DNA from: an uncultured Verrucomicrobiota bacterium | GTDB lineage: Bacteria; Verrucomicrobiota; Kiritimatiellia; CAIKKV01; CAITUY01 | Reading direction: 5' to 3' | Length of the DNA: 50,884 bases | Assembly (NCBI GenBank): GCA_964458765.1 | Contig: CAYWKN010000002.1 | Location: forward strand, 1-50,884 | Part shown: one piece after another, positions 6,921 through 29,094 of the stretch | How the letters are laid out: each line of letters starts with the position of its first letter | Position numbering within the stretch: the stretch's first letter is position 1 | Translations under genes and position numbers: made by a program | The notes under the pieces: generated by a model | Seen by the model: the letters and a program-made list of their open reading frames with translations, nothing else | Databases searched by the model: none | What the model was told of the DNA's origin: nothing

Positions 6921-6997
6921 CCATTCCCCATTAACCATCAACCATTGCCCATCAACCATCAACCATTCCCCATTGACCATCAACCATTGCCCATGAT
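6907..6997. repeat. Imperfect heptanucleotide tandem repeat CCATYRM x13 with 21-bp superperiod
   Basis: Read directly: ccattaa ccattaa ccattcc ccattaa ccatcaa ccattgc ccatcaa ccatcaa ccattcc ccattga ccatcaa ccattgc ccatgat. It contains the stop of the upstream GT gene (taa 6918-6920). The last unit contains the ATG of the downstream reductase (6993). Confidence 0.9.
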
Positions 6998-10248: not shown

Positions 10249-10787
10249 CCCCCCGCCCCAAGACCGCCAGGCGCTATGCCCAGGCGCTCCTTTCGCTGGC
10301 CTTGGAATCGGACTCCGAACACCGGGTGGCCGCGGATATGGATCTCATGGCCCGCGCGCCGGCCGGCTCTCCGGAATTGACCGGGTTCCTGCGGAACACC
10401 CGCCTCCCGCGCGACGTCCGGCGCCGGACCCTGGAAGCGCTGTTCCGGAACCGCGTCCACCCCCTGACCTGGAAATTCCTGCTGCTCCTGGAAAGCAAGC
10501 GCCGCCTGGACCTGCTCCCGGAAATCGGCGCCGCGTTCCGTTCCCTGGACGATGCCCGCCGCGGCATCGCGCGGGGCGAACTGACCGCGGCTGCCCGCAC
10601 CGCCGATGATGCCGTGAATGCCATGGCGGCCCGTTTCAGCGCCCTCCTGCGCAAGACGGTGCTGTTGCAGCAACGCGAGAATCCCGCCCTGCTGGGTGGA
10701 TGCCGGGTCCAGGTGGGCGATCTTGTCTACGATTACAGCCTGGCGGCGCGCCTGCGCCTCGCCCGGCAGGCCCTGACCGGAACTTGA
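10245..10787 (+). CDS. atpH: ATP synthase F1 subunit delta (OSCP)
   Basis: ATGA overlap with the atpF stop. ARRYAQALLSLALE start is typical of delta/OSCP. ~180 aa. Confidence 0.85.
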   Translation: MTPRPKTARRYAQALLSLALESDSEHRVAADMDLMARAPAGSPELTGFLRNTRLPRDVRRRTLEALFRNRVHPLTWKFLLLLESKRRLDLLPEIGAAFRSLDDARRGIARGELTAAARTADDAVNAMAARFSALLRKTVLLQQRENPALLGGCRVQVGDLVYDYSLAARLRLARQALTGT

Positions 10788-12335: not shown

Positions 12336-14995
<2,660 letters not shown>

Positions 14996-14999
<4 letters not shown>

Positions 15000-15244
15000 A
15001 TACACCCGCTCCATCCGGAAAAAGACCGGCCATCAGCGCCATGGCCGCGGGCTTCCAGTTCGCCGTCTGTATCCTGCTCCCCGTCTGGGCGGGCATCTAT
15101 ATTGACCGGCACCAGAAGACCCACCCCTGGGGCCTCGTCACGGGGTTCATCCTCGGCCTGGTTGTGGGCACCTGGAGCGTTTTTGTGCCGCTGTGGCGCG
15201 AGTCGGATTCCCACGTCCCCAAGCCGCGGGACGAGGACGAGTAG
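14996..15244 (+). CDS. Second AtpZ/AtpI-like small membrane protein
   Basis: ATG 14996 overlaps the atpC stop. AAGFQFAVCILLPVWAGIYIDRHQKTHPWGLVTGFILGLVVG has the same two-helix pattern as the 8151..8450 product. Confidence 0.6.
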
Positions 15245-15307
15245 GCCGCGCGAACGCCATTTTCTTCCTTTCGTGTGCCGCGTGTTTTTCGTAGGGTTCC
15301 CGCCGTC

Positions 15308-15865
15308 ATGCAGCCCATTCCACAACCTGTCCGGATGCCGTGCGTCTTCTTCGACCGCGATGGCATCGTGAACCGGTCCCCCGGACCCGGCTATGTGGAG
15401 CGCTGGGAGGATTTCCACCTCCTGCCGGAATTCCCCGCGGTTCTGGCGACCGTCACGCGACTGGGCTATGCCGCCGTCATCGTCACCAACCAGCGCGGGG
15501 TGGCGCTCGGGAACATGACGCTCGAAACAGTGCAGGAGATCCACCGGCGCCTTCGGGATGTCCTCCGGACCCGTCATGGACTGGAGATCCTGGACGTTCT
15601 GTGCTGTCCCCACGACCGGGACGAGTGCGACTGCCGCAAACCGAAACCCGGCATGCTGCTCGAAGCCGCCCGGCGCCACAGCCTGGACCTCGCCCGCTCG
15701 TGGATGATCGGCGATTCCGCCAAGGACGTCGAGGCCGGCCGGGCCGCGGGCTGCCGCACCATTCTGGTCGGCGACGCCGAGCCGCCGGCCCCGCCGCCGG
15801 ACCACCGTTTCGCCAATATGTCCGCGCTGGCCTCCGGCATTGCCAAACTCCTTGCGGCAGGCTAA
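15308..15865 (+). CDS. gmhB: D-glycero-D-manno-heptose 1,7-bisphosphate phosphatase-like HAD hydrolase
   Basis: FFDRDGIVN (HAD motif I), VTNQ, Zn-finger-like CPHDRDECDCRKPKPGML, IGDSAKDVEAGRAAG. Alternative starts GTG 15275 and ATG 15335. Confidence 0.8.
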   Translation: MQPIPQPVRMPCVFFDRDGIVNRSPGPGYVERWEDFHLLPEFPAVLATVTRLGYAAVIVTNQRGVALGNMTLETVQEIHRRLRDVLRTRHGLEILDVLCCPHDRDECDCRKPKPGMLLEAARRHSLDLARSWMIGDSAKDVEAGRAAGCRTILVGDAEPPAPPPDHRFANMSALASGIAKLLAAG

Positions 15866-15922
15866 CCTGCAGGGAATTGTACGCATGGGATTGCAGGGAA
15901 CCGGACTGTCAGGGGAAACACC

Positions 15923-17845
15923 ATGAAACTATTCGTACCGGGACGGATTTGCCTCTTCGGTGAACACAGCGACTGGGCGGGAAGTTACCGCCGCATCAAC
16001 GGCGCCCTGGAAAAGGGCTATACCATCATCACCGGCACCAACCAGGGGATCCACGCCGAGGTCAAACCCCACCCCTCGAAACTCATCGTCCGGTCCACCC
16101 TCAGCGACGGCACCCCCTTCGGTCCGTTTGAAGTGCCCATGGACCGCGAGGCCCTCCTCGCCGAAGCGCAGAAGGGCGGATTCTTCAGCTACGCCGCGGG
16201 CGTCGCCTACCAGGTGCTCACGCACTACCGCGTCCGCGGCATGGAAATCAACAATACCCTGACGGACCTTCCCATCAAGAAGGGGCTTTCCTCCAGCGCC
16301 GCCGCCTGCGTCCTCGTGGCCCGCGCCTTCAACCGCCTGTACGATCTCAAGATGACCGTCCGGGGCGAAATGGAGTTCGCCTACCTCGGCGAAATCACCA
16401 CCCCCTCCCGCTGCGGCCGCATGGACCAGGGATGCGCCTACGGGAACCGTCCCACCCTCATGACGTTCGACGGCGACCGGATCGACGTGGACGAGCTTTC
16501 CATCCCCAACGACCTTCACTTTGTGATCGTGGACCTGCACGTCGGCAAGGATACGAAGGAAATCCTCAACCGCCTGAACCATTGCTACCCGTTCGCCGAA
16601 GGCGAGGTCCAGCGCGGCGTGCAGCAATATCTCGGCCCCATCAGCGCCGGGATCACCCACCGGGCCGCGCAGGCCCTGCGGGAAGGCGACGCCCGGGCCA
16701 TTGGCGCCCTCATGCGCGAAGCCCAGGCCAGTTTCGACAAGTACTGCATACCCGCCTGCCCCTCGCAGCTCACCTCGCCGGTGCTTCACAAGACGCTGGC
16801 GCATCCGGCCCTGCAGCCGCATATCCTCGGCGGCAAGGGCGTCGGTTCCCAGGGCGACGGCGCCGCCCAGTTCATCGTCCGCGACGCCGAGGCCCAGGAA
16901 AAGGCCATCGCCGTCATCGAGCGCGAGCTGGGATTGTCCTGCCTGCGCCTGGTCATCCAGGGAGGCCACCGGGTTCGGAAAGCCGTCATCCCCGCCGCCG
17001 GCTTCGGCACCCGCTTGTTCCCGGCCACCAAGGCGCTCAAGAAGGAAATGTTCCCCGTGATGGACCGCTCCGGGCGAATCAAGCCCGCCATCCTCGCCAT
17101 CGTCGAGGAAGCCGTGAACTCCGGCATCGAGGACGTGGGCCTGATCGTGCAGACATCCGACAAGGATCTGTTCGAGGACTTCTTCAACGCGCCCCCGCCC
17201 ATCGAGAACTTCAACAAGCTTTCCCGCGAGAACCAGGAATACAGCCGTTATCTTCTGGATGTCGGGCGCCGGGTGCACCTGCTGACCCAGGATGTCCAGG
17301 AGGGATTCGGGCACGCGGTCCACTGCTCCCGCAAGTTTGTCGGCAAGGAGCCGTTCCTGCTCCTGCTGGGCGATCATCTCTATGCGTCCGACACCGACCG
17401 TTCCTGTGTGGGCCAGTTGCTGGACGTCTATGAGCGGACCGGACGCAGCGTGGTCGGCCTCAAGGTGATGCCCGGGCGGGAGGTCGGCAATTTCGGCTGC
17501 GTGACCGGAATCTGGCAGAAGGAAGGCGAGATCCTGAACATCACGGAATTCGTCGAAAAACCGGATATCGAGTATGCCCGCAGCAACCTGCAGGTGGAGG
17601 GCCTGCCGGCGGACAGTTTCCTGACCATCTTCGGCATCTACATCCTCAAGCCGGAGGTGTTCGAGCTGCTGGATCACAACATCACCCGCAACCTCCGGGA
17701 GCGCGGCGAATTCCAACTGACGTCGTGCCTGGATGAACTGCGCAAGCTCGACGGGTTCACCGGTTGCGTCCTCAAGGGCCGCCGCTTCGACATCGGCCTC
17801 CCCGAAGCCTACCGCCAGACAATGATCGATTTCCGCAACGCGTAA
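15923..17845 (+). CDS. Fusion protein: N-terminal GHMP sugar kinase + C-terminal GalU-like sugar-1-phosphate nucleotidyltransferase
   Basis: PGRICLFGEHSDW (GHMP motif I), PIKKGLSSSAAACV (motif II), GGKGVGSQGDG (motif III). From about aa 350: KAVIPAAGFGTRLFPATKALKKEMFPV (GalU/NTP-transferase signature). Confidence 0.8.
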   Translation: MKLFVPGRICLFGEHSDWAGSYRRINGALEKGYTIITGTNQGIHAEVKPHPSKLIVRSTLSDGTPFGPFEVPMDREALLAEAQKGGFFSYAAGVAYQVLTHYRVRGMEINNTLTDLPIKKGLSSSAAACVLVARAFNRLYDLKMTVRGEMEFAYLGEITTPSRCGRMDQGCAYGNRPTLMTFDGDRIDVDELSIPNDLHFVIVDLHVGKDTKEILNRLNHCYPFAEGEVQRGVQQYLGPISAGITHRAAQALREGDARAIGALMREAQASFDKYCIPACPSQLTSPVLHKTLAHPALQPHILGGKGVGSQGDGAAQFIVRDAEAQEKAIAVIERELGLSCLRLVIQGGHRVRKAVIPAAGFGTRLFPATKALKKEMFPVMDRSGRIKPAILAIVEEAVNSGIEDVGLIVQTSDKDLFEDFFNAPPPIENFNKLSRENQEYSRYLLDVGRRVHLLTQDVQEGFGHAVHCSRKFVGKEPFLLLLGDHLYASDTDRSCVGQLLDVYERTGRSVVGLKVMPGREVGNFGCVTGIWQKEGEILNITEFVEKPDIEYARSNLQVEGLPADSFLTIFGIYILKPEVFELLDHNITRNLRERGEFQLTSCLDELRKLDGFTGCVLKGRRFDIGLPEAYRQTMIDFRNA

Positions 17846-17868: not shown

Positions 17869-17900
17869 TTGACGCGTACACTATGTTATATCATAGTGTA
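17869..17900 (+). promoter_or_regulatory. Promoter-like hexamers overlapping a 9-6-9 perfect inverted repeat, directly upstream of hsdM
   Basis: TTGACG (17869-17874), 17 nt, CATAGT (17892-17897). Palindrome TACACTATG-ttatat-CATAGTGTA at 17877-17900, 3 nt before ATG 17904. The function is inferred. Confidence 0.4.
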
Positions 17901-17903
17901 TGC

Positions 17904-19724
17904 ATGATTACACCTGATCTTGCCAAAACCGTGCGGATTTTGCGGTCACGACTGCAACTCAGCCAGGAACAACTCGCCCAGCGGCTCAACGTCTCTTTCG
18001 CCACCGTCAACCGCTGGGAAAACGGAAAATCCGAACCCCAGGGTGCGACACGGGACGCTCTCCAAGCGCTTCTTGACGAAGTCGGCGAAGGCGAATTGGG
18101 GCTCCGCACGGAATCGGTCCAGGAAACCATCCCCGCGCGCCGGAAGCGGGGCACCGCCCGGAGCAATGTGCTTTCCACCAAGTCCATGGAACAAATGCTC
18201 TGGGATGCCGCCTGTTCCATCCGCGGGGAAAAGGACGCCCCCAAGTTCAAGGATTACATCCTCCCCCTGGTCTTCATCAAACGCCTGTCGGATGTCTTCG
18301 AGGACGAAGTGCAGCGACTGACCGAAACCTATGGCGACGCCAAGACCGCCTTGGAGATTCTTGAGTCCGACCACACCCTGGTCCGATTCTATATCCCACC
18401 GGAAGCCCGGTGGCCGGTCGTCAGCGGTCGCCAACCCTTCGCCTGGCCCGCCAACCACAAGCCCAAGACGCTGGGCGAACAACTCACCACCACGATCCGC
18501 GCCATCGTCAAGCAGAACCAAAGCCTGAGCGGCGTCATCGATATCGTGGACTTCAACGAGACCCGCAACGGCGAGCGCGAAATCAGCGACAAGGCCTTGT
18601 CCGGCGTCATCGAAACCCTTTCCGACCCCCGTTACCGGATGGGCCTGCACGATGTCGAACCGGATTTCCTCGGCCGCGCCTACGAATACCTCCTGCGCAA
18701 GTTCGCCGAGGGCCAGGGCCAGAGCGCCGGGGAGTTCTTCACCCCGCAGGAAGTCGGGTGGCTCATGGCCTACATCGTGCGGCCACGACAGGGCGAGAAC
18801 GTTTACGATTACGCCTGCGGCTCCGCCGGCCTCCTCATCAAGTGCGAATTGGCTCTGCAACAACGCGAACGCCGCATCTCGCGTCCGCTCAAACTCTACG
18901 GACAGGAACTCACCGGCTCCAGTTATGCCATCGCCCGCATGAACATGGTCGTCCACGACATGGAGGGCGAAATCGTCCGCGGCAATTCGATGACCAACCC
19001 CAAGTTCCGCGACTCGGATACCCGGCTCCGGAAATTCGACATTGTCGTGGCCAACCCCATGTGGAACCAGCCGTTCGAGGAGTCCACCTTCCAGAACGAT
19101 CCCTTCGCACGGTTCGAGGAACAGGGCGGTCTCCCCGGCGGCAAGGCCGACTGGGCCTGGCTCCAGCACACGCTGGCCTCCCTCAATCCGACCGGGCGCG
19201 CCGCCGTCGTGCTGGATACCGGCGCCGTCACCCGCGGCAGCGGCAGCCGCAACGAGGACAAGGAGAAACGCGTCCGCAAGTGGTTCGTCGACCAGGACGT
19301 CATCGAGGGCGTGATCCTTCTGCCCGACAATCTTTTCTACAACACCAGCGCGCCCGGCATCATTGTGGTGCTCAACCGCGCCAAACCGGCCTCGCGCAAG
19401 GACCGGATCATCCTGGTCAACGCCGGGGCCGAGTTCAAGAAGGGCCAGCCCAAGAACTTCATTCCCGAGCCCGGCATCCGGAAAATCGCCGATGCCTTTA
19501 TCAAGGCGGAGGACGTGCCGAACTTCGTCAAGGTCATCCCCACCGCCGAGGCGGTCCGGAACGACTACAACCTCTCCCCGTCCCGCTACGTGGGAGTGGC
19601 CACCGAGGAAGTTTACCGCGAGATTCCGGAGATCGTGGCGGAATTGCGCCAGCATGAGGCCAAGGCCGCCAAGGTCGGCAAGGAACTGGCGCGGATACTC
19701 AAACAGATCGGGGTAGCGGGATGA
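17904..19724 (+). CDS. hsdM: Type I restriction-modification methyltransferase subunit with N-terminal XRE-type HTH domain
   Basis: N-terminus LRSRLQLSQEQLAQRLNVSFATVNRWENGKSEP (HTH_3-like). HsdM_N-like region (MLWDAACSIRGEKDAPKFKDYILPLVFIKRLSD). SAM motif YDYACGSAGLL. Motif IV region VVANPMWNQ. Alternative ATG 17883 lies inside the palindrome. Confidence 0.93.
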   Translation: MITPDLAKTVRILRSRLQLSQEQLAQRLNVSFATVNRWENGKSEPQGATRDALQALLDEVGEGELGLRTESVQETIPARRKRGTARSNVLSTKSMEQMLWDAACSIRGEKDAPKFKDYILPLVFIKRLSDVFEDEVQRLTETYGDAKTALEILESDHTLVRFYIPPEARWPVVSGRQPFAWPANHKPKTLGEQLTTTIRAIVKQNQSLSGVIDIVDFNETRNGEREISDKALSGVIETLSDPRYRMGLHDVEPDFLGRAYEYLLRKFAEGQGQSAGEFFTPQEVGWLMAYIVRPRQGENVYDYACGSAGLLIKCELALQQRERRISRPLKLYGQELTGSSYAIARMNMVVHDMEGEIVRGNSMTNPKFRDSDTRLRKFDIVVANPMWNQPFEESTFQNDPFARFEEQGGLPGGKADWAWLQHTLASLNPTGRAAVVLDTGAVTRGSGSRNEDKEKRVRKWFVDQDVIEGVILLPDNLFYNTSAPGIIVVLNRAKPASRKDRIILVNAGAEFKKGQPKNFIPEPGIRKIADAFIKAEDVPNFVKVIPTAEAVRNDYNLSPSRYVGVATEEVYREIPEIVAELRQHEAKAAKVGKELARILKQIGVAG

Positions 19725-20908
19725 AAGCAAAGCGGGAAAAGCAGGTGCCTTCGCTTCTCCAGGTAAAACGTAACTCGGATGCCGTCGCCCAAGAAGAGAC
19801 AGGCAATTATCGGGACATGCTCGATGGCGTGATCCTCTTAATTAAGGAGGGCCGCCAGGTATCCGCCCGCACAGTGGACACCGTGATGACAGCGACATAT
19901 TGGTTGGTTGGGCGGCACATTGTGGAATTCGAGCAACAAGGCAACCCGCGCGCCCCATACGGTGTCGAATTGCTAAAACGCCTGGCAAATGACTTGAAGT
20001 CCCATTTTCAACGGGGCTTCGACGTGGACAACCTCCAGCGGATGCGCCGTTTCTACCTCGCATATGTTTCCGCCGAAAATTACGCGACACTGTCGCGTAA
20101 ATCCGACAGCAGAACACCGGCAAATTACGCGACAGTGTCGCGTAATTCATTGCCACCGCGTCTCGCAAGTCTCACGGCCCGCTTCCCATTGCCATGGTCC
20201 GCCTATGTCCGCCTGCTCTCGGTGAAAAACGAACACGCCCGGCGCTTCTACGAAACCGAAGCCATGCGGGGCGGATGGGGAGCCCGCCAACTCAACCGCC
20301 AAATTGACGCCCTTTTCTATGAGCGCACAGCCTTGTCCACAAACAAGGCAAAAATGCTGAAAGAAGGCGCGAAACCCCACCAAGGGGAAGAGCCCGCCGC
20401 CGAGGAACACATCAAGAATCCCTATGTGCTGGAGTTCCTGGGACTCAAGGATGAATATTCCGAAAACGATATCGAAGAAGCATTGATCCTGCATCTCGAA
20501 AGGTTCCTTTTGGAACTGGGGGGGGATTTCGCTTTTGTCGGACGGCAACGCCGGTTGCGCGTGGGTGACGAGTGGTATCGCATTGATCTGCTTTTCTACC
20601 ATCGCAGGCTACGTTGTCTGGTCATCATTGACCTGAAACGCGGCAAGTTTACCCATGCCGACGCCGGTCAAATGCACCTCTATCTCAATTATGCGCGGGA
20701 GCATTGGACCCTGCCCGGCGAAAACCCACCTGTTGGCCTTATTCTCTGCACACACAAGGATGAAGCCCTTGCCCATTATGCATTGGAAGGTCTACCCAAC
20801 AAAGTTCTGACCGCCGAGTATCGCACAACCCTGCCTGAGGAATCCGTGATAGCCGCCGAACTCGACCACACTCGCCGCCTTCTGGAAGCGCGGGAGAAGA
20901 AAGCATGA
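19721..20908 (+). CDS. DUF1016/YhcG-family PD-(D/E)xK nuclease-like protein
   Basis: ATGA overlap with the hsdM stop. NPYVLEFLGL...DIEEALILHLERFLLELGGDFAFVGRQRRL...YRIDLLFYHRRLRCLVIIDLKRGKFTHADAGQMHLYLNY matches the YhcG C-terminal nuclease-like core. Lower GC (28/60 in a sample line). Confidence 0.85.
   Translation: MKAKREKQVPSLLQVKRNSDAVAQEETGNYRDMLDGVILLIKEGRQVSARTVDTVMTATYWLVGRHIVEFEQQGNPRAPYGVELLKRLANDLKSHFQRGFDVDNLQRMRRFYLAYVSAENYATLSRKSDSRTPANYATVSRNSLPPRLASLTARFPLPWSAYVRLLSVKNEHARRFYETEAMRGGWGARQLNRQIDALFYERTALSTNKAKMLKEGAKPHQGEEPAAEEHIKNPYVLEFLGLKDEYSENDIEEALILHLERFLLELGGDFAFVGRQRRLRVGDEWYRIDLLFYHRRLRCLVIIDLKRGKFTHADAGQMHLYLNYAREHWTLPGENPPVGLILCTHKDEALAHYALEGLPNKVLTAEYRTTLPEESVIAAELDHTRRLLEAREKKA
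20080..20147. repeat. Twin perfect palindromes TTACGCGACA-N-TGTCGCGTAA inside the DUF1016 gene
   Basis: 20080-20100 ttacgcgacaCtgtcgcgtaa and 20125-20145 ttacgcgacaGtgtcgcgtaa. The second extends to a 25-bp palindrome at 20123-20147. Centres are 45 bp apart, and the copies are exact reverse complements of each other. Confidence 0.9.
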
Positions 20909-20984
20909 ACAAGGCAAAAACAACCCTTCCGCGCTCCGCCTCTCTCGCGCCACCTACTAACGCGCACCACGCTGCAAACTTGAA

Positions 20985-21038
20985 GTCACAATTTGTGACC
21001 TCAAGTTACGAGGACAACCGGTCACACATTGTGACCGG
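20985..21038. promoter_or_regulatory. Two operator-like palindromes GTCACA-N3-TGTGAC between the DUF1016 gene and hsdS
   Basis: gtcacaatttgtgac (20985-20999) and ccggtcacacattgtgaccgg (21018-21038, 9-3-9 perfect). Centres are ~36 bp apart. Regulatory role is inferred only. Confidence 0.35.
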
Positions 21039-21046
21039 TCTGCCCC

Positions 21047-22459
21047 ATGGCGGACACCGAGAACTGCCTCTCTCTCCTTCACCAAAAGGCTGAATCCATG
21101 GGACAAAAAACAAATAAACCACCCACCCGAAAAGGTGACACAGGCTTCCAGCCTGTGATTCCCGACAAGATCACGGGCAAGATGCCCGTGTCACGTTTGC
21201 CGGAAAACTGGCGCCAAACACGCATTGGCGATGCCTACTGTTTTACCCGACGGCCAAAAGGGTTGCGTTATTCCGATTACGCCACAATCCCTTTCATTCC
21301 GATGAACTTGATCCCACAGGGAGGAGCGACACAACCATCGTTCGTCGACAAGACAGCGGCGCAGATCACCAGCGGCACCTACTTTGAACAAGGAGACCTC
21401 TTGCTCTCCAAGATCACCCCGTCTTTTGAGAACGGCAAACAGGCCATCGCATCCAACCTCCCCATTCCATTCGGGGTCGCGACAACCGAGGTTATCCCTA
21501 TCCAGGCCCTCACTGGAACAAGCGACACCCATTTCTTATTCTACTGCCTGCTACAGCCGGAAGTGCGGCAGGCCATCGCATCGAAAATGGAAGGCAGCAC
21601 GGGTCGTCAACGCGTTCCCGAGCACGTCATCAGGGACTGGATCATCCCCCTCCCCCCCCTGGCCGAACAGGAACGGATTGCCGCCATCCTATGGAAGATC
21701 CAGGAAGCCATCGCAAGCGAGGCGGCGATCATCCGCAACGCCCGGGACCTCAAGAAATCCCTACTCCGCCACCTCTTCACCCACGGCCTCCACAACGAAC
21801 CGCTGAAGGAAACCGAGATCGGACGAATGCCGGAGAGTTGGGACGTTGTGACCATCGGCCATGAGTGCGGCACATGTACCTCCGCTATGAGTTACACCCA
21901 GTTCATTCATCTGGAGGAATCGGTCGAAGGGGTGATAGTACATGGTGTCAAAGTGTCAGATATGAACTTGCCGGGCAACGAAGTGCGCTTCGAGTCGGCA
22001 AACCTTGTGAAGACGCTTCCACTATCAATAGCCCAAAAGAGAACGGTTCCGTCCGGATCAGTTGTTTTCCCAAAACGAGGGGCAGCGATTGCGACGAACA
22101 AGAAACGCCTGACCACCACTTGGACAGTGCTCGATCCAAATCTGATCGCAATTGTGCCGGGCAAAGACGTCGAGTCAACTTTTCTCCTAAACTGGTTTCT
22201 CACTTTCGACTTGGCGTCAATTACTGAACCGGGGCCGACGCCGCAACTGAACAAGAAGAACGTCGTGCCGCTTTTATTCCCGAAGCCCACAAAGGAAGAA
22301 CAGCGCGAAATAACTCCCATTCTGAGCACCGTGGACGAGAACATCGCGATTCACGAGGCAAATCAGCAGACCTTGCGGGACCTGTTCAGGGCGGTGCTGA
22401 ATGGGTTGATGAGTGGAAAGATGAGGGTGGGAGAGTTGGAGATGGAGGAGGCGAGGTGA
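21047..22459 (+). CDS. hsdS: Type I restriction-modification specificity subunit
   Basis: Two target-recognition halves, each opening with LPE(N/S)W...IGD/IGH. Conserved helical spacers (PLPPLAEQERIAAILWKIQEAI... and FPKPTKEEQREITPILSTVDENI...). Start uncertain: ATG 21047, 21098 or 21182. Confidence 0.85.
   Translation: MADTENCLSLLHQKAESMGQKTNKPPTRKGDTGFQPVIPDKITGKMPVSRLPENWRQTRIGDAYCFTRRPKGLRYSDYATIPFIPMNLIPQGGATQPSFVDKTAAQITSGTYFEQGDLLLSKITPSFENGKQAIASNLPIPFGVATTEVIPIQALTGTSDTHFLFYCLLQPEVRQAIASKMEGSTGRQRVPEHVIRDWIIPLPPLAEQERIAAILWKIQEAIASEAAIIRNARDLKKSLLRHLFTHGLHNEPLKETEIGRMPESWDVVTIGHECGTCTSAMSYTQFIHLEESVEGVIVHGVKVSDMNLPGNEVRFESANLVKTLPLSIAQKRTVPSGSVVFPKRGAAIATNKKRLTTTWTVLDPNLIAIVPGKDVESTFLLNWFLTFDLASITEPGPTPQLNKKNVVPLLFPKPTKEEQREITPILSTVDENIAIHEANQQTLRDLFRAVLNGLMSGKMRVGELEMEEAR
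21135..21194 (+). repeat. 60-nt double-hairpin repeat element, copy A (5' end of hsdS)
   Basis: gtgaCACAGGCTtccAGCCTGTGattcccgacaagatCACGGGCAagaTGCCCGTGtcac. Read in-frame it gives DTGFQPVIPDKITGKMPVS. Confidence 0.9.
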
Positions 22460-22463
22460 ACAA

Positions 22464-25400
22464 ATGAAACCGAAAAACAAACCGCAACTGCGACTTCTTG
22501 ATGACTTACCTGCCGGCATGACGGAAGTCGCGGGGGACCGTTTCAACCATGGTGTCTATGCTGACAGTCTGCGCGACATCCTATTGTCCAACAGGCCCGG
22601 CATCAGTGTTGGCCTCCTTGGCAAATGGGGACAGGGGAAAAGCACCATCGTCAACCTGCTCCACAAGACGCTGTCGGGGAAGGCTCAGGTTGTCGTTTTC
22701 AACGCTTGGAAGGCCCGGGGTGATTCTGTCCGGAGGCAGATGCTGCTTGAAGTGCTTCGACAAATCGGGTCGGGTGAATATGAGAAACTGAGGCGGTTCA
22801 CCAATACGAGGTTGCCGTTTGCGTTATGGACTGCGGAGGAGCGTGAACCGTTCTCTTCCGCCAATATCCGCCACTTCCTGTTTAAGGTTCGCCATCTGCC
22901 ACTATGGATTCAGGGTGCGATCGCACTGGCCACGATCTGTGCCGTTGCTGTCACGATAACGACAATTGGCGTCTATCACGGGAATTCCACGGCTAAAGAT
23001 TTTGCTGGTTCAATCGCATTCCTAGGAGGACTTGTGATCTCATCTTTCGCTGCCGTTCTAGGATGGTTCAAAGAAACCCGCAAGAACGAATTAATGGTGT
23101 ACACAGAACCTGTATCAGAAAGCCTTACGCTCAAGTACCCGGAACAGTTCCAACGCGTATTCGAACAGGAGGTCGCGAAACACTGCAAGGCTTGTGGACG
23201 CCTGATCATCGTCGTCGACGATCTCGACCGATGTGAACCGGCCACCGTTGTTGAAGTTCTAGCTGCCATAAGGCAGTTCTCCTGCGGACATATCCACGAC
23301 CCCGGTTGTGCAGTCCAAGACTCACTGGACTGTCAATTTCTCGTTCCGTGCGACGAAGAACAGCTGGTCTTGGCGTTGGAATCAGATGGGCACAGGCGCA
23401 AGGGAACTGACGTTTGTTACCATAACTACCGTGATGAATTGTTGCGCAAGTTCTTTGATATCGTTGTAAGGATGGATCCTCCACTGCCTCAGGACTTGGT
23501 AACTTATGCTGAGACCTTGGTGACATCAGGAGTTATTGACATCGATGTCTCAGCAGCAAAAGAAATCATTGGAGTGGCCGATCCACGCGATCCACGGCAG
23601 GTCAAAAAACTGCTGAACGCACTCACACTGGCACTCGACAAGGCGCACCGGTTTCACGACATCGGCTTATTGCCTGGCTGCGAGGAGTTTCCAGATCTCC
23701 AAAAGACTCTTATCCTCTTGACGGCTCTTCGGGAGACGACCCCCTATGTCTACGATGAAATATGCAGAATGCCAGACGTCCTGGACAATCTATCATCACT
23801 CCCTCTTGAGAAGTTCAACAAGACAGAGATCGAAAAGGCAACAACAATAAGGCAACGTTGTGGATACGTGTCGTCTGTGACTGTCAGTCTCCTGACCTCT
23901 TTCCACTGGGACTCCCGCCTTTCCGGCATAAAGGACGGACCTGCTTTTATCAAAGCGGTCGGGGATGGGGACGAAACTTCCTTTAAGAACATCCTTCAGC
24001 AAGTTGAGGAGGGAGACCGAACTCGCCTGTTAGGGTTCTTCGGTGACAACGTCACAACAACCACACGTACACCAGCCCAACTGCGAAAGTCGCTTATGCT
24101 CCTGGGAGACTATGGCCTGTTGGGTGACTTGCATGAGAAGGCCGCCGCTTCAGTTCTGGATGCACTTCTGAAGACTGCGGGACTCCACCACTACTTCCCT
24201 AACGCATTGGAAGGATTGGCGCGACTGGATTGGATATCTCGACAAATACCCGCCCTGCATACTGATGCCAGGGATGACTTGGTTGAGTTTGTACTCCAGA
24301 ACTACATGAAAGAACCGAAGACACGCGAACATGAACTCAGATTCCTACTACAAACACCGTTACTGATGCGAGAAGACCTGAAGTCGCGCTTCTGTGGTAC
24401 ACTTGAAAAGTACCTGAAGGATCTGAAAGATCCCGAATGGCAGATGCATGTCGAACGCATTGTTCCGATGCTCCCAAGTGACCAAAGGCAGTGTGCTGGG
24501 TTTGTCCCTGACTTGGTCCCGTGGATGGTGCAGCGGTTATGGACCGATGACGTGAGAACGAAAGATCCGGCGGCGTGGTCCACACCTAAGTTGGCCGCCG
24601 CCATGATCGGGCATGATGCCGACAAGGCAAAAGAATGTCTTCAGAATCTCTTCGGCACCACTGGTAAACTGCAATCACCCCAACGGATTCAAAGCACGCC
24701 AGGCATTTGGCCACTCTGGAAGTTCATAACGCACCTGATGACAATCCTCGATCCCAAGAGTATTCCTGACTTTTATCCGCATCTCCAGAAATGGTTGTCG
24801 CAACAGAGTTCGAAAGAGGAAGTCGAGTGCGTCCTCAATGCCATGAAGGCACAGATACTTGCATTCAAGACTCCACAACTGAAGGAGATCGCGCAGGTCA
24901 TCTTCACTTCCATTCAAAATCAACCCGACCAGACCTGGGCGTTGACGTATCTCCCATCGAAAAGCGCCGCCACCTCCCAAAAGGTCCAATGGGACTTCTT
25001 ATGCCAGTCATTCTTCGCGAAGTTTAAGGAACACGCTTTGCAGAACGGCGTTTTCCCCAATTGGTATCAAACCATTCTCAAAAGGGTCGTTGACGACCAG
25101 TGGCCAATAACGGCCGAAGCCGACATTCTGCTGGGATACAAGATCAGAACGCAACAGGAGTCGGAGAAGTGGTTCAGCAACCTTGAACCAGTGATTAGGG
25201 GTGAGTGTCCAGTAACAAGAAAGGATATCCTTGCGCGAATGGCAGCGCAAACGGACAACATAACGGCATTTCGAATGGGAATCAAGGTGTGGACCAGCAA
25301 TATGGAGGAAAAGGAAAGGGATGAGACGTGCCGAGCAATCGCCAGTTTCCTTGAAAAGGCACCGGCGGCGGTTCTTTCCTCGAATTCAGGCGAACTCAAT

Positions 25401-25679
25401 GCCTTCACCGACATATCTTTGGCTGGTGCAGCACTGGATTATACTGTGGATCTACTGAGAGAGGATGAAAAGTGGTTACAGGGAAAAGAGCAACTGCTTG
25501 GCTTTCTTGCGAGTCGAGTTCAACTGCTGAATGGCGAGCACCGGGAGGCATTGAAGCGCAGAGCCAAGTTCCTTCAGGCTCAAAGTGACAATGTTCTGAA
25601 AACGCTTGGTTCCAAGGTGTTGGACGTTATGGAAGAGAATCAGAAACACACATCAACATTTGTGAACGACCCTACGTAA
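22464..25679 (+). CDS. KAP-family P-loop NTPase with intradomain transmembrane hairpin and ~800-aa uncharacterised C-terminal region
   Basis: Walker A GLLGKWGQGKST (aa ~51-61). Two hydrophobic helices (LPLWIQGAIALATICAVAVTITTIGVY, FAGSIAFLGGLVISSFAAVLGWF). Then Walker B LIIVVDDLDRCEP (aa ~247-259), the KAP architecture. 4-nt gap after hsdS and 21 nt before hsdR. Low GC (27/60, 26/60, 33/60 in three sampled lines). Confidence 0.85.
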   Translation: MKPKNKPQLRLLDDLPAGMTEVAGDRFNHGVYADSLRDILLSNRPGISVGLLGKWGQGKSTIVNLLHKTLSGKAQVVVFNAWKARGDSVRRQMLLEVLRQIGSGEYEKLRRFTNTRLPFALWTAEEREPFSSANIRHFLFKVRHLPLWIQGAIALATICAVAVTITTIGVYHGNSTAKDFAGSIAFLGGLVISSFAAVLGWFKETRKNELMVYTEPVSESLTLKYPEQFQRVFEQEVAKHCKACGRLIIVVDDLDRCEPATVVEVLAAIRQFSCGHIHDPGCAVQDSLDCQFLVPCDEEQLVLALESDGHRRKGTDVCYHNYRDELLRKFFDIVVRMDPPLPQDLVTYAETLVTSGVIDIDVSAAKEIIGVADPRDPRQVKKLLNALTLALDKAHRFHDIGLLPGCEEFPDLQKTLILLTALRETTPYVYDEICRMPDVLDNLSSLPLEKFNKTEIEKATTIRQRCGYVSSVTVSLLTSFHWDSRLSGIKDGPAFIKAVGDGDETSFKNILQQVEEGDRTRLLGFFGDNVTTTTRTPAQLRKSLMLLGDYGLLGDLHEKAAASVLDALLKTAGLHHYFPNALEGLARLDWISRQIPALHTDARDDLVEFVLQNYMKEPKTREHELRFLLQTPLLMREDLKSRFCGTLEKYLKDLKDPEWQMHVERIVPMLPSDQRQCAGFVPDLVPWMVQRLWTDDVRTKDPAAWSTPKLAAAMIGHDADKAKECLQNLFGTTGKLQSPQRIQSTPGIWPLWKFITHLMTILDPKSIPDFYPHLQKWLSQQSSKEEVECVLNAMKAQILAFKTPQLKEIAQVIFTSIQNQPDQTWALTYLPSKSAATSQKVQWDFLCQSFFAKFKEHALQNGVFPNWYQTILKRVVDDQWPITAEADILLGYKIRTQQESEKWFSNLEPVIRGECPVTRKDILARMAAQTDNITAFRMGIKVWTSNMEEKERDETCRAIASFLEKAPAAVLSSNSGELNAFTDISLAGAALDYTVDLLREDEKWLQGKEQLLGFLASRVQLLNGEHREALKRRAKFLQAQSDNVLKTLGSKVLDVMEENQKHTSTFVNDPT

Positions 25680-25700
25680 TCGACAACGACATTCATCCAC

Positions 25701-28700
25701 ATGAGTTCACTCGCCGTAGAATCGACAACCGTCCAATCCCCTCTCCTCCGTTATGCGGCGGAGGCCGGCTGGACGCCCATTCCCCCTTCGGATGCCGTGA
25801 AACTGCGCCAGGGGGAGGCGGGCACGATGTTCTACGGACTGGTGGAGAAAACACTGCTCAAACTGAATCCCGGCATCGTCACCACCGAGAACGTCGCCGA
25901 AATCGTCCGGCGCATCGAAGGGGTTCGCAACTCCATCGAGGGCAATGCCGAAATCCTGGCCTGGCTTCGCGGGGAACGATCCGTCTATGTCCCCTCGGAA
26001 AAACGCCAGCGGAACGTCCGGCTCGTGGATTTTGACAAGCCAGCCGCCAACACCTTCCACGTCACCCCGGAATGGCGGTACACCAATGGCTCGCAGTCGA
26101 ACCGGGCCGATATCATGTTCCTCGTCAACGGCATCCCCGTCGCCCTCGTGGAAACCAAGAGCGCCAAGAAACGCAACGGCATCGAGGAAGCCCTGATCCA
26201 GGTCCGCCGCTACCACCGCGAAACCCCCGAAATGCTCACCGCCCCCCAGGTGTTCAACCTCACCCACCTCATCGACTTCCACTACGGCGCCACCTGGAAC
26301 CTCGACCGCAAGGACCTGTTCCGATGGAAAAGTGACACAGGCTTCCAGCCTGTGTCAGCACAACCGTCCGCACGTGACACAGGCTTCCAGCCTGTGATCC
26401 CAACCAACACCACAGGCAAGATGCCTGTGTCACCCTCCTTCGAAGCCCTCATTAAGTCTTTCTTTGACCGACAACGATTCCTGACCCTCATCAAGGAATG
26501 GATCCTGTTCTACGTCAAGGACGACGAACTCCGGAAAACCGTCCTCCGTCAACACCAGGTCCGCGCTGTGGAAAAGGTGCTCGCCCGTTGCGCCGACCCC
26601 CGGAAAACCACCGGCCTGGTCTGGCACACCCAGGGTTCCGGCAAGACCTTCACCATGATCACCGCGGCGCGCCTCCTGCTGGAAGGTGACACAGGCTTCC
26701 AGCCTGTGATCTCTACCAACTCCACAGGCAAGATGCCTGTGCCACCCTCCCAACGTGACACAGGCTTCCAGCCTGTGATTCCTTCCAAGCCCACCGTCCT
26801 CCTCATCATCGACCGCAACGAACTGGAAGGACAACTCACCGGCTGGGTGGAACGACTGCTCGGCGAATTGACCGACGAGGATATCGCCATCGAACGGGCC
26901 ACCGGCAAACAACGCCTCCGGGAACTGCTGGCCTCCGACTTCCGCGGCCTCATCATCTCCACCATCCACAAATTCGACGGCCTCCCCAAGGCCGTCAACA
27001 AACGCGACAACATCTTTGTGCTGATCGACGAAGCGCACCGCTCGACCGGCGGCGACCTCGGCAATTACCTCATGGGCGCCCTTCCCAACGCCACCTTGAT
27101 CGGCTTCACCGGCACCCCCATCGACAAGACCGCCTATGGCCAGGGCACCTTCAAGACGTTCGGGCGCGAGGACAGGGACGGCTATCTGGACAAGTATTCC
27201 ATCGCGGAGTCCATGGCCGACGAAACCACGCTGAAACTGAAGTACGCGCTCGCCCCGAACGATATCCGCCTGCCCGACGAAATCCTGGAGAAGGAATTCC
27301 TCGCCCTGGCGGAAGCCGAGGGCGTCAGCGATGTGGAGGAACTGAACCGCATCCTCGACAAGGCTGTCACCCTCAAGGCTTTCCTCAAATCGGAGAGTCG
27401 CATCAAGGCCGTGGCGGCGTTTGTGGCGGACCATTTCCGCGCGAATGTCCACCCGCTCGGCTACAAGGCCTTCCTCGTGGGTGTGGATCGCGAAGCCTGC
27501 GCCCTTTACAAGCAGGCGCTCGATAAACTCCTGCCCCCGGAATGGGTGACCCCCATCTATACCGCCGCGGCCAACGACAGCGAACGCCTCCCCATCGTCG
27601 CTGCGCACCAGACGGCCGGTCCCGGCGAGACCACCGCCCGCAAACTGTTCATCAAGCCGGGTATGGATCCCCAAATCCTGATCGTGACCGACAAACTCCT
27701 GACCGGCTATGACGCGCCCATCCTGTACTGCATGTACCTGGACAAGCCCATGCGCGACCATGTCCTGCTCCAGGCCATCGCGCGCGTGAACCGGCCCTAC
27801 GAGGCGGAGGACGGCACCAAGAAACCCTGCGGTTTCGTTCTGGATTTCATCGGCGTATTCGGCAAATTGAAGAAGGCGCTCGCCTTCGACTCGAAGGAAG
27901 TCAGCGGCATTGTCGAGAACATCGAGGTCCTGTTCGCCCGCTTCAAGGAGTTGATGACCGGCCGCGCCGGCAGTTATCTGGCGCTGATCGGGAAAGCGAT
28001 GGACGACAAGGCCGTCGAGCGCGCCATTGACGCCTTTGCCAACAGGGAAAAGCGGGAGGAGTTCCAGGCCTTCTTCAAGGAGGTCGAAACCCTGTACGAA
28101 ATCCTCTCGCCATCGCCCGAACTGCGGGACTTTATCGAGCCTTTCGCGAAACTGGCCGCGTTGTACGGGATTGTGCGGAACGCCTTCGAGGTCAAGACGC
28201 CGCTGTACACCGACATCGCCAGGAAGACCGAAACCCTCGTCCGGGAAACCGCGGCAGCCTACGGGCTCAAGGGCGCCACAAAAGTCGCGGAAATCAGCGC
28301 CGGAACGTTAAAAAGCATTCAGGAGGGCGCCTCCTCCGACGGCAGCAAGGTTGTCAGTCTCGTCAAGTCGCTTGTCAAGGCGGCTGAGGACAGCGGCGGT
28401 GAGGAGCCCTATCTGATCCCGATCGCCGAACGTGCCAAGGCCATCATGGAGGCGTTCGATGACCGGCAGGAATCCACGCGCCATGCCTTGGCCGAAGTAC
28501 AGAGCCTGGCGCGGCAAAAGATCGAGGCGGAGGAAGAACGGCGGCGCACGGGCATGGGCATCAATACGTTCACCCTATACTGGGTGTTGAAGGGCGAGGG
28601 CATCCGGAATGCCCCCGAACTGGCGGCCACCCTCAATGCCATCATCGAACGCTTCCCCAACTTCAAGGACAACGGCGAGGAACGCCGGCAACTCAAGGCC

Positions 28701-28787
28701 GAGGCCTACCGGGCGCTGTTGCCGGTTGTCGGGGGGAAGACCATGGTCGCCCTCGCGGAACGTATCCTCGCGCTGAAAAGGAAATGA
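25701..28787 (+). CDS. hsdR: Type I restriction enzyme R subunit (nuclease + SF2 translocase)
   Basis: PD-(D/E)xK region ADIMFLVNGIPVALVETKSAKK. Helicase motifs HTQGSGKTFT, VLIDEAHRS, GFTGTP, QAIARVNR. Intact 1028-aa ORF despite two repeat insertions. Confidence 0.95.
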   Translation: MSSLAVESTTVQSPLLRYAAEAGWTPIPPSDAVKLRQGEAGTMFYGLVEKTLLKLNPGIVTTENVAEIVRRIEGVRNSIEGNAEILAWLRGERSVYVPSEKRQRNVRLVDFDKPAANTFHVTPEWRYTNGSQSNRADIMFLVNGIPVALVETKSAKKRNGIEEALIQVRRYHRETPEMLTAPQVFNLTHLIDFHYGATWNLDRKDLFRWKSDTGFQPVSAQPSARDTGFQPVIPTNTTGKMPVSPSFEALIKSFFDRQRFLTLIKEWILFYVKDDELRKTVLRQHQVRAVEKVLARCADPRKTTGLVWHTQGSGKTFTMITAARLLLEGDTGFQPVISTNSTGKMPVPPSQRDTGFQPVIPSKPTVLLIIDRNELEGQLTGWVERLLGELTDEDIAIERATGKQRLRELLASDFRGLIISTIHKFDGLPKAVNKRDNIFVLIDEAHRSTGGDLGNYLMGALPNATLIGFTGTPIDKTAYGQGTFKTFGREDRDGYLDKYSIAESMADETTLKLKYALAPNDIRLPDEILEKEFLALAEAEGVSDVEELNRILDKAVTLKAFLKSESRIKAVAAFVADHFRANVHPLGYKAFLVGVDREACALYKQALDKLLPPEWVTPIYTAAANDSERLPIVAAHQTAGPGETTARKLFIKPGMDPQILIVTDKLLTGYDAPILYCMYLDKPMRDHVLLQAIARVNRPYEAEDGTKKPCGFVLDFIGVFGKLKKALAFDSKEVSGIVENIEVLFARFKELMTGRAGSYLALIGKAMDDKAVERAIDAFANREKREEFQAFFKEVETLYEILSPSPELRDFIEPFAKLAALYGIVRNAFEVKTPLYTDIARKTETLVRETAAAYGLKGATKVAEISAGTLKSIQEGASSDGSKVVSLVKSLVKAAEDSGGEEPYLIPIAERAKAIMEAFDDRQESTRHALAEVQSLARQKIEAEEERRRTGMGINTFTLYWVLKGEGIRNAPELAATLNAIIERFPNFKDNGEERRQLKAEAYRALLPVVGGKTMVALAERILALKRK
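26332..26433 (+). repeat. Hairpin repeat: half copy D (26332-26357) plus full 60-nt copy B (26374-26433) inside hsdR
   Basis: D is gtgacacaggcttccagcctgtgtca (11-bp stem). B is gtgacacaggcttccagcctgtgatcccaaccaacaccacaggcaagatgcctgtgtcac. Translated SDTGFQPVSAQPSARDTGFQPVIPTNTTGKMPVS. Confidence 0.9.
26686..26779 (+). repeat. Hairpin repeat: full 60-nt copy C (26686-26745) plus half copy E (26755-26779) inside hsdR
   Basis: C is gtgacacaggcttccagcctgtgatctctaccaactccacaggcaagatgcctgtgccac. E is gtgacacaggcttccagcctgtgat. Translated GDTGFQPVISTNSTGKMPVPPSQRDTGFQPVIPS, located just after helicase motif I. Confidence 0.9.
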
Positions 28788-28791
28788 CGCC

Positions 28792-29094
28792 GTGTCCCGC
28801 AAGAAGTCATCGGCACCATGCAGGCGCTCACGTTTCAAGGCCGAGGTCGCCCGATGGTCGGAAAAGATCAAGGTCCGGCCCAGGCAGATCCGGTTGCAGC
28901 GCATGACGCGGCGATGGGCCTCCTGTTCCGCCGGGGGCCGGGTCTCCTTTAACGCCGACTTACCGGACAAGCCCCGCCGTTTCCGGGAGTATGTGATCGT
29001 GCACGAACTTCTGCACCTGAAAGTCCCCAACCACGGGAAGTTGTTCAAGAGTTTGCTCAAGGCATACCTTCCGGGCCGGGACTCGCCATCGTAA
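28792..29094 (+). CDS. Short DUF45/YgjP-like (SprT/WLM-type HExxH) metallopeptidase-like protein
   Basis: GTG start 4 nt after the hsdR stop. RRWASCSAGGRVSFNADL...REYVIVHELLHLKVPNHGKLFKSLL matches the C-terminal core of DUF45. At only 100 aa it is shorter than the ~230-aa proteins I associate with this family. Confidence 0.7.
   Translation: MSRKKSSAPCRRSRFKAEVARWSEKIKVRPRQIRLQRMTRRWASCSAGGRVSFNADLPDKPRRFREYVIVHELLHLKVPNHGKLFKSLLKAYLPGRDSPS

Follow-up and report, generated by a model that had tools for sequence, protein, structure and literature searches.

How do identical hairpin-forming repeats come to lie in frame within restriction genes? This question is raised by a 50,884-nt stretch of DNA from an uncultured Verrucomicrobiota bacterium (contig CAYWKN010000002.1, hereafter the window), in which a 23-nt hairpin recurs in the hsdS and hsdR genes of a type I restriction–modification (R-M) island. 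A prediction made earlier from the DNA letters (the original prediction) had offered two answers: an element resembling a repetitive extragenic palindrome (REP) or a miniature inverted-repeat transposable element (MITE) that colonises coding DNA, or a structured DNA or RNA signal specific to this operon. The analysis presented here points to the former. It is likely that the repeats are REPs and paired REPs (REPINs) of a family that goes with the REP-associated tyrosine transposases (RAYTs), and that they landed in tolerant loops, where they persist as tolerated selfish DNA.

Hairpin repeats in hsdS and hsdR

A scan of the window found GTGACACAGGCTTCCAGCCTGTG as an exact match on the + strand at positions 21135, 26332, 26374, 26686 and 26755, just as had been predicted, while 100 dinucleotide-preserving shuffles contained no copy. 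All five copies lie inside hsdS or hsdR (Table 1). Three of them are followed, across a 14-nt spacer, by a second hairpin, CACRGGCAAGATGCCYGTG, which is found at 21172 in a G...C form and at 26411 and 26723 in an A...T form. The resulting 60-nt units, also inside these two genes, share a mutual identity of 82–100%. The minus strand of hairpin 2 differs from the 23-mer at three positions only, all in the loop, and each 60-nt unit is therefore an inverted pair of related hairpins. The three units that had been predicted are thus present, but not all with the predicted GTGAC...GTCAC termini: the unit at 26686 ends in GCCAC, its outer CCAC being the canonical GTGG head read on the other strand. 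Overall, seven of the eight REP ends in the window have GTGA/TCAC as their 4-nt head and one has GTGG/CCAC. No further or degenerate copy was found in the 50.9 kb by regular-expression, fuzzy and repeat scans; the original prediction had likewise stated that there is no copy elsewhere. A count of perfect hairpins whose stem is 8 bp or longer returned 24 entries, against approximately six in shuffled sequence, and nearly all of them are within the R-M operon.

The single unit (23 nt) comprises an 8-bp stem and a 3-nt loop, with a DNA folding energy of −8.5 kcal/mol (z-score −4.4). As single-stranded DNA (ssDNA), the 60-nt unit is predicted to fold in one of two ways, into a single long hairpin (−20.2 kcal/mol) or into two local ones (−17 to −18.5 kcal/mol), with z-scores of −5 to −6.7.

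All window copies share one orientation and one reading frame (DTGFQPV...TGKMPV), again as predicted, and the distances between successive starts in hsdR (42, 312 and 69 nt) are each a multiple of 3. It had also been argued that only this frame can survive inside a gene. This is correct for the + orientation, where the other two frames meet a TGA and this one alone is open, but not for the opposite strand, on which two to three frames are open (TGWKPVS, SQAGSLCH and HRLEACV). Nor is one frame and orientation the only viable one in general: the related HsdR protein P0006 and a GMP synthase carry the element in the opposite orientation.

Table 1. Coordinates of the repeats, of their host operon and of RAYT genes in related islands (positions are those of the window unless a locus is named).
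Feature	Position	Strand	Remarks
REPIN-like doublet, hsdS 5′ end	21135..21194	+	REP 1, 14-nt spacer, inverted REP 2
hsdS doublet, REP 1	from 21135	+	GTGA head, hairpin CACAGGCT-TCC-AGCCTGTG
hsdS doublet, inverted REP 2	to 21194	+	CACGGGCA-AGA-TGCCCGTG, then TCAC
Solo REP, hsdR site 1	26332..26357	+	aa 211–219, DTGFQPV; palindrome extends to TGACACAGGCT-TCC-AGCCTGTGTCA, 11-bp stem
REPIN-like doublet, hsdR site 1	26374..26433	+	aa 225–244, RDTGFQPVIPTNTTGKMPVS; nuclease/helicase domain 1 linker
REPIN-like doublet, hsdR site 2	26686..26745	+	aa 329–349; loop after motif-I helix
Solo REP, hsdR site 2	26755..26777	+	aa 352–359, RDTGFQPV
Type I R-M island	17883..29094	+	hsdM with helix-turn-helix (HTH), DUF1016/YhcG, hsdS, KAP NTPase, hsdR, YgjP-like
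hsdM with N-terminal HTH	17883–19724	+	R-M operon
DUF1016/YhcG gene	19721–20908	+	R-M operon
hsdS	21047..22459	+	5′ region rearranged relative to syntenic orthologue L121
KAP-family NTPase gene	22464..25679	+	GC 0.50–0.53; occupies hsdS–hsdR slot
hsdR	25701..28787	+	1028 aa; HSDR_N, ResIII/SWI2_SNF2, T1R_D3-like; open reading frame (ORF) intact
RAYT between hsdS and hsdR, L122 island	L122:1–879		RAYT-hsdR-YgjP
RAYT between hsdS and hsdR, L150/L171 island	L171:2716–3627		hsdM (82% identical to that of the window)-DUF1016-hsdS-RAYT-hsdR (73%)
RAYT between hsdS and hsdR, L152 island	L152:2415–3197		far more divergent system; HsdM 55%, HsdR 47%
RAYT between hsdS and hsdR, L182 island	L182:4457–5227		hsdM(HTH)-DUF1016-hsdS-RAYT-hsdR-YgjP; HsdM 80%, HsdR 74%
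RAYT between hsdS and hsdR, L183/L184 island	L183:1346–2152		hsdS-RAYT-hsdR-YgjP

The repeats are absent from the closest orthologous operon

HsdR homologues are mostly 971–972 aa long. The window protein, whose 1028-aa ORF is uninterrupted as had been predicted, exceeds its closest orthologue, the 975-aa P0002, by approximately 53 aa. P0002 is encoded by a syntenic operon (locus L121) that is 89–94% identical to the window at the nucleotide level and contains none of these hairpins, which identifies the window copies as lineage-specific insertions. Moreover, the five 23-mers are 100% identical to one another, while the flanking gene has diverged from L121 by 8–11%.

At site 1 the window reads K-S-[DTGFQPV]-SAQPS-[AR DTGFQPVIPTNTTGKMPVS]-PSFE and L121 reads K-S-SAQPS-[SEVK]-PSFE; at site 2 the respective sequences are LLE-[34 aa]-KPTV and LLE-[DKETFA]-KPTV. 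The alignment with the orthologue thus bears out the predicted insertions, but they are not clean, since four native codons (SEVK) are gone at site 1 and six (DKETFA) at site 2. Comparison with the empty L121 sites revealed no target-site duplication at the three sites. The same inserts, in a full-length 1028-aa gene, are present in an independent Joint Genome Institute (JGI) assembly (contig L181, reached through the near-identical HsdR protein P0001), which rules out an assembly artefact.

The island itself is not in the same place in the two loci. In L121 it separates a HAD-hydrolase gene from the gene that directly follows HAD in the window; in the window, the HAD gene (15329–15856) is followed by that gene (15923–16204) and the island lies 1.7 kb further on (HAD neighbourhood 14392–16204, island 17883–29094). 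This difference in insertion point indicates movement of the island. Nor is the cargo between hsdS and hsdR the same: it is a KAP NTPase gene in the window and a 23S_rRNA_IVP-like gene in L121.

Two loops of HsdR take up nearly all insertions

In an alignment of the best 120 HsdR homologues, nearly all insertions or deletions of at least 5 aa fall at site 1 (approximately 31 sequences) or at site 2 (approximately eight), and most of the homologues are without the window segments. The extra residues at the two sites represent at least five distinct palindrome-type repeat families: TGFQPV/TGKMPV/TGILPV/TGWKPV, SPSSSPPKGGGE, RDSVPSVV, LSDKSDTSD and GQECPTY. The hairpins of the window themselves recur at both sites in P0006 (locus L122), in the opposite orientation, which signifies an independent insertion. 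On the evidence of this alignment, both sites are permissive loops, with very little of the length variation among the 120 homologues lying elsewhere, and HsdR looks to be a natural 'collector' of lineage-specific REP-like elements. In other lineages (homologues P0011–P0113), these same two loops hold SPSSSPPKGGGE, RDSVPSVV, LSDKSDTSD, GQECPTY and EILRSAQN.

The alignment with HsdR of EcoR124I breaks exactly at both sites, and places site 1 in the linker between nuclease and helicase domain 1 and site 2 in a short loop after the helix that follows motif I. This agrees with the predicted placement in the nuclease/helicase linker and shortly after motif I (approximately 13 residues, against approximately 12 in the original prediction). 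An AlphaFold2 model is also in accord: both inserts are modelled as coil, with a predicted local distance difference test (pLDDT) score of 27–45, and the site 2 loop lies between a helix (residues 314–328) and a strand (365–370). The model (global pLDDT 63, predicted template-modelling score (pTM) 0.33) was used for local secondary structure and local confidence only, a pTM of 0.33 being too low to judge surface exposure.

That both sites are natural variable linkers in the HsdR family could also be taken to mean that the segments are ancestral HsdR and HsdS linker peptides, with the nucleotide hairpins incidental. The HsdR alignments and the empty L121 sites refute this: the segments are missing from P0002 and from most of the 120 homologues, the five copies are 100% identical as DNA against a flank divergence of 8–11%, and copies of the same DNA are found both in unrelated genes and between genes. 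An ancestral protein feature is therefore next to untenable.

The hairpin belongs to a widespread REP/REPIN family

A scan with the 19-nt hairpin, covering one genome per species, listed at least 120 loci and 144 copies. The hosts span approximately 10 phyla, and those listed include Planctomycetota, Verrucomicrobiota, Desulfobacterota, Binatota, Acidobacteriota, Elusimicrobiota, Omnitrophota, Fibrobacterota, Lentisphaeria and a Peptococcaceae genome. Among the matches listed, CAMARB01, JAZDKM01 and JAXMBK01 are multi-copy genomes, with at least 5–6 loci each. Immediately 5′ of the hairpin, where REPs have their head, 77 of the 144 copies listed show GTGG and 37 show GTAG (114/144, 79%), and many copies are inverted doublets of the form GTGG-hairpin...hairpin-CCAC. 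Partner hairpins have alternative, mutually complementary stems: stem position 5 is A-T in 37 family copies, G-C in 17 and C-G in 10, and position 7 is G-C in 50 and C-G in 12, counts that include some chance loop matches and are indicative rather than a formal test of covariation. The exact 23-mer with its GTGA head was found in 58 metagenome contigs, which include doublets with the 14-nt-spacer architecture of the window (e.g. L128 and L148). The element is thus a short stem-loop palindrome that occurs in inverted pairs with a short spacer and, as judged from sequence and architecture, is a REP/REPIN of the GTAG super-family.

In one sample series (Ga0310124/Ga0310125; loci L123–L125, L132, L151, L155, L156, L169, L174 and L178) the GTGA doublet, whose hairpin 2 is of the G-C form found in hsdS, is nested in a dispersed repeat of approximately 130 nt, which has outer inverted repeats of its own, GTATCTGTTGCGGAAAG...CTTTCCGCAACAGATAC.

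Copies within genes form a minority of the family. Of the 144 listed, 21 lie in frames without a stop for 80 or more codons to either side, leaving approximately 85% outside long ORFs. In-frame hosts with flanking Pfam domains include MutS (L027), a PurL-type FGAM synthase (L096), the GMP synthase GuaA (L043) and the porphobilinogen deaminase HemC (L051). The GuaA copy is in the opposite orientation and encodes the peptide TQAGSLCH; indeed, in-gene copies of the family are found in several frames and both orientations. When the insert peptides were concatenated into a 66-aa query, a search of a database of 5.8 billion proteins returned six candidates only.

Could the hairpins nevertheless be a structured signal, such as an attenuator, an RNase site or a translational control element, that regulates the hsd genes? 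They are stable, every copy is co-oriented with transcription, and the window has none outside the R-M island. The hsdS copy lies just upstream of the target recognition domain (TRD), the loop of its hairpin 2 includes an ATG in frame, and RNA-level roles have been proposed for many REPs (PMC3733652). The hairpin is found in more than 170 loci, however, within unrelated genes and in intergenic DNA, and R-M genes are near it at none of the 120 listed GTGG/GTAG genome loci and at four of the 58 GTGA metagenome loci, so that it is not R-M-specific. The closest orthologous operon works without these hairpins, and related hsdR genes hold them in the opposite orientation. Moreover, the repeats have no Rfam match above threshold: a search of Rfam 15 covariance models returned generic miRNA hairpins only, with 21–28 bits against gathering scores of 57–128. 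This half of the original prediction is decidedly unlikely to be correct, while the other half, a REP/MITE-like element that colonises coding DNA, gains from the heads, the inverted doublets, the bracketing of RAYT genes and the in-frame copies in housekeeping genes.

Within that half, a classical MITE derived from an insertion sequence (IS), with terminal inverted repeats and target-site duplications and with no relation to RAYTs, would accord with the inverted termini GTGAC...GTCAC and with the nesting of the doublet in an inverted repeat of approximately 130 nt in one sample series. Such an origin is very improbable in view of the three sites at which the empty L121 locus reveals no duplication and 4–6 native codons are missing, of the solo single-hairpin copies, of the GT[A/G]G-type heads, and of the RAYT genes that the hairpins bracket.

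RAYT genes occupy the hsdS–hsdR slot of related islands

Searches of all ORFs of the fetched loci with phmmer and jackhmmer identified seven RAYT-like proteins, each bracketed by hairpins of the family; hairpin-flanked RAYT genes are present in L064, L079, L109, L122, L152, L168, L171, L182 and L183. Those of L109 and L079 score 94.8 and 93.1 bits, respectively, on NF047646, the NCBIfam model for 'REP-associated tyrosine transposase' (curated cut-off 80 bits). The others score 63–68 bits on this model and match Pfam Y1_Tnp at or near threshold.

In the related islands L122, L150/L171, L152, L182 and L183/L184, a RAYT of the GTGA subfamily occupies the slot between hsdS and hsdR that holds the KAP NTPase gene in the window. 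The hsdR genes of the RAYT-bearing islands have doublets too, at site 1 or site 2. Relatives of the RAYT that share 61% and 55% identity occur in unrelated housekeeping contexts. Judged from this distribution, the GTGA-subfamily RAYT clade is a resident of R-M islands.

Two further arrangements were observed among the RAYT loci. In L168 (4951–9180), a whole REP-RAYT-REP unit is seemingly in frame inside the gene for the large subunit of carbamoyl-phosphate synthase, the 1410-aa ORF having CarB domains before and after a Y1_Tnp/REP_Tyr_transpos match (approximately aa 945–1047). In L064 (890–1657), a RAYT-like ORF from Elusimicrobia has in-frame copies of its own REP hairpin: STGFQPV precedes the RRNLPHWQ motif, another copy follows the HUH motif, and TGKMPV is at the C-terminus. 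In addition, the RAYT homologues P0142 and P0219 (L186–L188) bear the JGI name 'type I restriction enzyme R subunit', and the gene for P0219 is flanked by Sua5 and MurJ genes; these names probably reflect annotation transfer from RAYT-hsdR neighbours or fusions.

The recurrence of the RAYT in this slot admits a stronger reading, namely that the RAYT clade and the GTGA REPINs form an integral, co-inherited module of this family of type I R-M islands, the gene always being placed between hsdS and hsdR, and that the REPs in the hsdR loops and at the hsdS 5′ end are cis sites at which the RAYT or hairpin extrusion modulates restriction or brings about rearrangement and mobility of the island. Taken together, these two propositions are very unlikely. 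If true, they would describe a domesticated transposase coupled to a defence system rather than passenger DNA.

A paired base change and templated mutation

The original prediction had drawn attention to hairpin 2, in which the hsdS copy has G...C where both hsdR copies have A...T, and had taken this as a compensatory change that argues for selection on nucleic acid structure. The paired difference was indeed seen (21172 versus 26411 and 26723). The G...C form, however, is a frequent, pre-existing allele of the subfamily and does not represent a compensatory event within this operon. The argument for selection is also weakened by templated mutation, which likewise perfects palindromes.

An apparent instance of the latter is present at the locus itself. 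The JGI contig L181 and the window differ at five of 23,087 positions (99.98% identity), and four of these are consecutive (26329–26332), at the foot of the solo hairpin, where the window has AAAG and L181 has GTGC (10629–10632). The four bases of L181 are the exact complement of the 3′ flank, lengthen the perfect stem from 11 to 15 bp, change the folding energy from −12.2 to −20.0 kcal/mol, and alter HsdR K210-S211 to S-A (K210S/S211A). L121 retains TGG AAA, which makes the window state ancestral. Quasipalindrome correction is an intrastrand template switching that perfects imperfect palindromes, and the four-base cluster has the signature of such an event. Palindrome-perfecting changes such as this one can arise by templated mutation, and selection is not the sole route to them.

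The polymorphism bears on another possibility, that the direct repeats are recombination substrates which switch restriction on and off, or that a RAYT excises and re-inserts them in hsdR. The only polymorphic cluster between the two near-identical assemblies is at a REP junction, a RAYT gene adjoins hsdR in the sister islands, and the three hsdR spacings are all multiples of 3, so that a 312-nt deletion from 26374 to 26686 would keep the frame and take out motif I. Against this, the cluster is explained by template switching, not excision; the in-frame spacing is already demanded by purifying selection; and the gene is full-length (1028 aa) in both assemblies, with no deletion variant among the homologues aligned. 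Switching of this kind is extremely unlikely. A phase-variable hsdS shufflon was likewise rejected, given a single hsdS, no recombinase gene in the operon, and repeats that are direct and placed in hsdR loops and at the hsdS 5′ end.

The hsdS 5′ end and other palindromes of the island

The placement of one copy inside hsdS, as originally predicted, requires qualification. The hsdS start codon of L121 overlaps the stop codon of DUF1016 (ATGA). This start is kept in the window at 20905, but there opens a frame of 62 codons that stops at 21093 and is out of register with the TRD body of hsdS. The ORF of that body starts at 21047, the gene caller picked 21098, and a further in-frame ATG, the one in the hairpin 2 loop, is at 21182. 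The first Methylase_S domain begins at aa 52, just past the element. The copy is at the extreme 5′ end of hsdS, upstream of Methylase_S, and may therefore be an N-terminal extension or part of the 5′ untranslated region.

Other palindromes were noted in the island. The out-of-frame leader (20905–21093) holds two within 20986–21039, of which AACTTGAAGTCACAATTTGTGACCTCAAGTT is common to L121 and ACCGGTCACACATTGTGACCGGT is confined to the window; the encoded peptides are NLKSQFVTSS and NRSHIVTG. In the DUF1016/YhcG gene (20078–20147), the perfect palindromes TTACGCGACACTGTCGCGTAA and AATTACGCGACAGTGTCGCGTAATT, exact inverted repeats of one another, lie in frame in a variable linker (NYATLSRKS...NYATVSRNS), and L121 and L182 have other paired motifs (xTLSxxS) at the same linker position. 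At 17877–17900, the perfect palindrome TACACTATGTTATATCATAGTGTA overlaps the predicted start of hsdM, the product of which has an N-terminal HTH_3 domain; the palindrome may be an operator for autoregulation, and is put forward as a candidate. Outside the island, the repeat scan recorded a tandem array at 6907–7011 (family D3), with a 21-nt period and 7-nt CCATTAA/CCATCAA-like units.

Origin of the repeats

These observations can be assembled into a model. REP and REPIN hairpins with a 4-nt head (GTGA, a variant of GTGG/GTAG), as singles and as inverted doublets, would be mobilised by a RAYT, a Y1/HUH tyrosine transposase, that acts on single-stranded hairpin DNA. Copies would have landed in hsdR and hsdS of a mobile type I R-M island, and the survivors would be those that kept the frame and hit a tolerant site, be it the nuclease/helicase linker, the loop after the motif-I helix or the hsdS 5′ end. 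The simplest reading is a selective filter through which only in-frame insertions in permissive loops persist. The inserts would then be tolerated selfish DNA that adds disordered loop residues and is presumably neutral for HsdR function. The likely local source is a RAYT such as that between hsdS and hsdR in the sister islands, which may once have stood in the slot now taken by the low-GC KAP NTPase gene; alternatively, the REPs may have been supplied in trans from elsewhere in the genome.

Several points weigh against this reading. There is no RAYT gene in the 50.9-kb window. All eight hairpins lie in the R-M island, with none in the other ∼ 40 kb, and REPs are predominantly extragenic, unlike the window copies, which are intragenic save possibly that of hsdS. 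The head is GTGA, not the canonical GTAG or GTGG, in seven of the eight window REPs, GTGA being a one-base variant of GTGG. A simple cut-and-paste model leaves the 4–6 missing codons unexplained. Finally, the global confidence of the AlphaFold2 model is low (pTM 0.33).

Comparison with known systems

The closest known system is that of the GTAG-type REPs and REPINs with their RAYTs (Nunvar 2010; Bertels & Rainey 2011; PMC3733652). The family of the window elements resembles it in the ∼ 23-nt hairpin, the 4-nt head, the occurrence as singles and inverted dimers with variable spacers, the sub-families with alternative complementary stems, and the RAYT genes bracketed by repeats. GTAG-tagged REPs are present in the Planctomycetes–Verrucomicrobia–Chlamydiae (PVC) superphylum, with Opitutus terrae highly enriched, and most O. 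terrae GTAG-20 elements have a GTGG head (Di Nocera, De Gregorio & Rocco 2013; PMC3733652). The same study documents a minority of intragenic REPs, in O. terrae the elements GTAG-17 to GTAG-20, as singles of approximately 7 aa or dimers of 20–30 aa; one ORF may hold two, and genes for helicases, replication and repair are frequent hosts. Back-translation of the GTAG-19 peptides of O. terrae, GTGVPPV...GRDARAT, gives almost CACGGGC/GCCCGTG, a stem near that of the window; the window loops (TTCCA, AAGAT), GTGA head and peptides are absent from the tables and supplements of PMC3733652. The present case also differs in that the hosts are type I R-M genes, which do not figure in the host table of that study, and in that the RAYT of the subfamily is found inside the R-M operon.

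RAYTs and the IS200/IS605 transposases belong to one superfamily of Y1 HUH enzymes (Pfam Y1_Tnp), and by analogy the presumed RAYT substrate would be an ssDNA hairpin with an adjacent tetranucleotide. Unlike IS200/IS605 elements, the window has no transposase between hairpins and its REPs are dispersed and non-autonomous, and the RAYTs of relatives are single genes at a fixed operon position, not multi-copy ISs.

Rickettsia palindromic elements (RPEs), reportedly described by Ogata et al. in 2000, are said to be in-frame palindromic repeats at function-compatible positions and to have been read as selfish DNA. They are mentioned in PMC3733652. The likeness is one of behaviour only, that of in-frame palindromes filtered by selection: RPE-1 is ∼ 100–150 bp long, Rickettsia-restricted and without a known dedicated transposase, whereas the window elements are 23–60 nt long, RAYT-associated and unrelated in sequence. 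Membership of the RPEs was rejected on size and sequence, and on the hosts, which are of PVC, Desulfobacterota and other phyla.

With its empty orthologous site, second assembly and mapped permissive loops, the locus provides a clean, well-controlled example of in-gene insertion, and the apparent templated extension of a palindrome offers direct evidence of how two HsdR codons were rewritten. The presence of an identical 19-nt hairpin over approximately 10 phyla is hard to square with strictly vertical, lineage-specific co-evolution of REPINs and RAYTs, and the RAYT clade in the hsdS–hsdR slot suggests that R-M islands can ferry REPIN systems between genomes. For annotation, the peptides TGFQPV, TGKMPV, TGWKPV and HRLEAC flag REP-derived segments.

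Type I R-M loci are known to hold accessory genes between hsdS and hsdR, for example that of the prrC anticodon nuclease. As in prrC loci, the slot is here a site of variable cargo, be it a KAP NTPase gene, a 23S_rRNA_IVP-like gene or a RAYT. No published report that links a RAYT to R-M systems or to this slot was found in the searchable literature. In-gene REP insertion is published behaviour of GTAG-type REPs, and the case is in that respect mostly ordinary; its new element is the RAYT of the GTGA subfamily that recurs between hsdS and hsdR.

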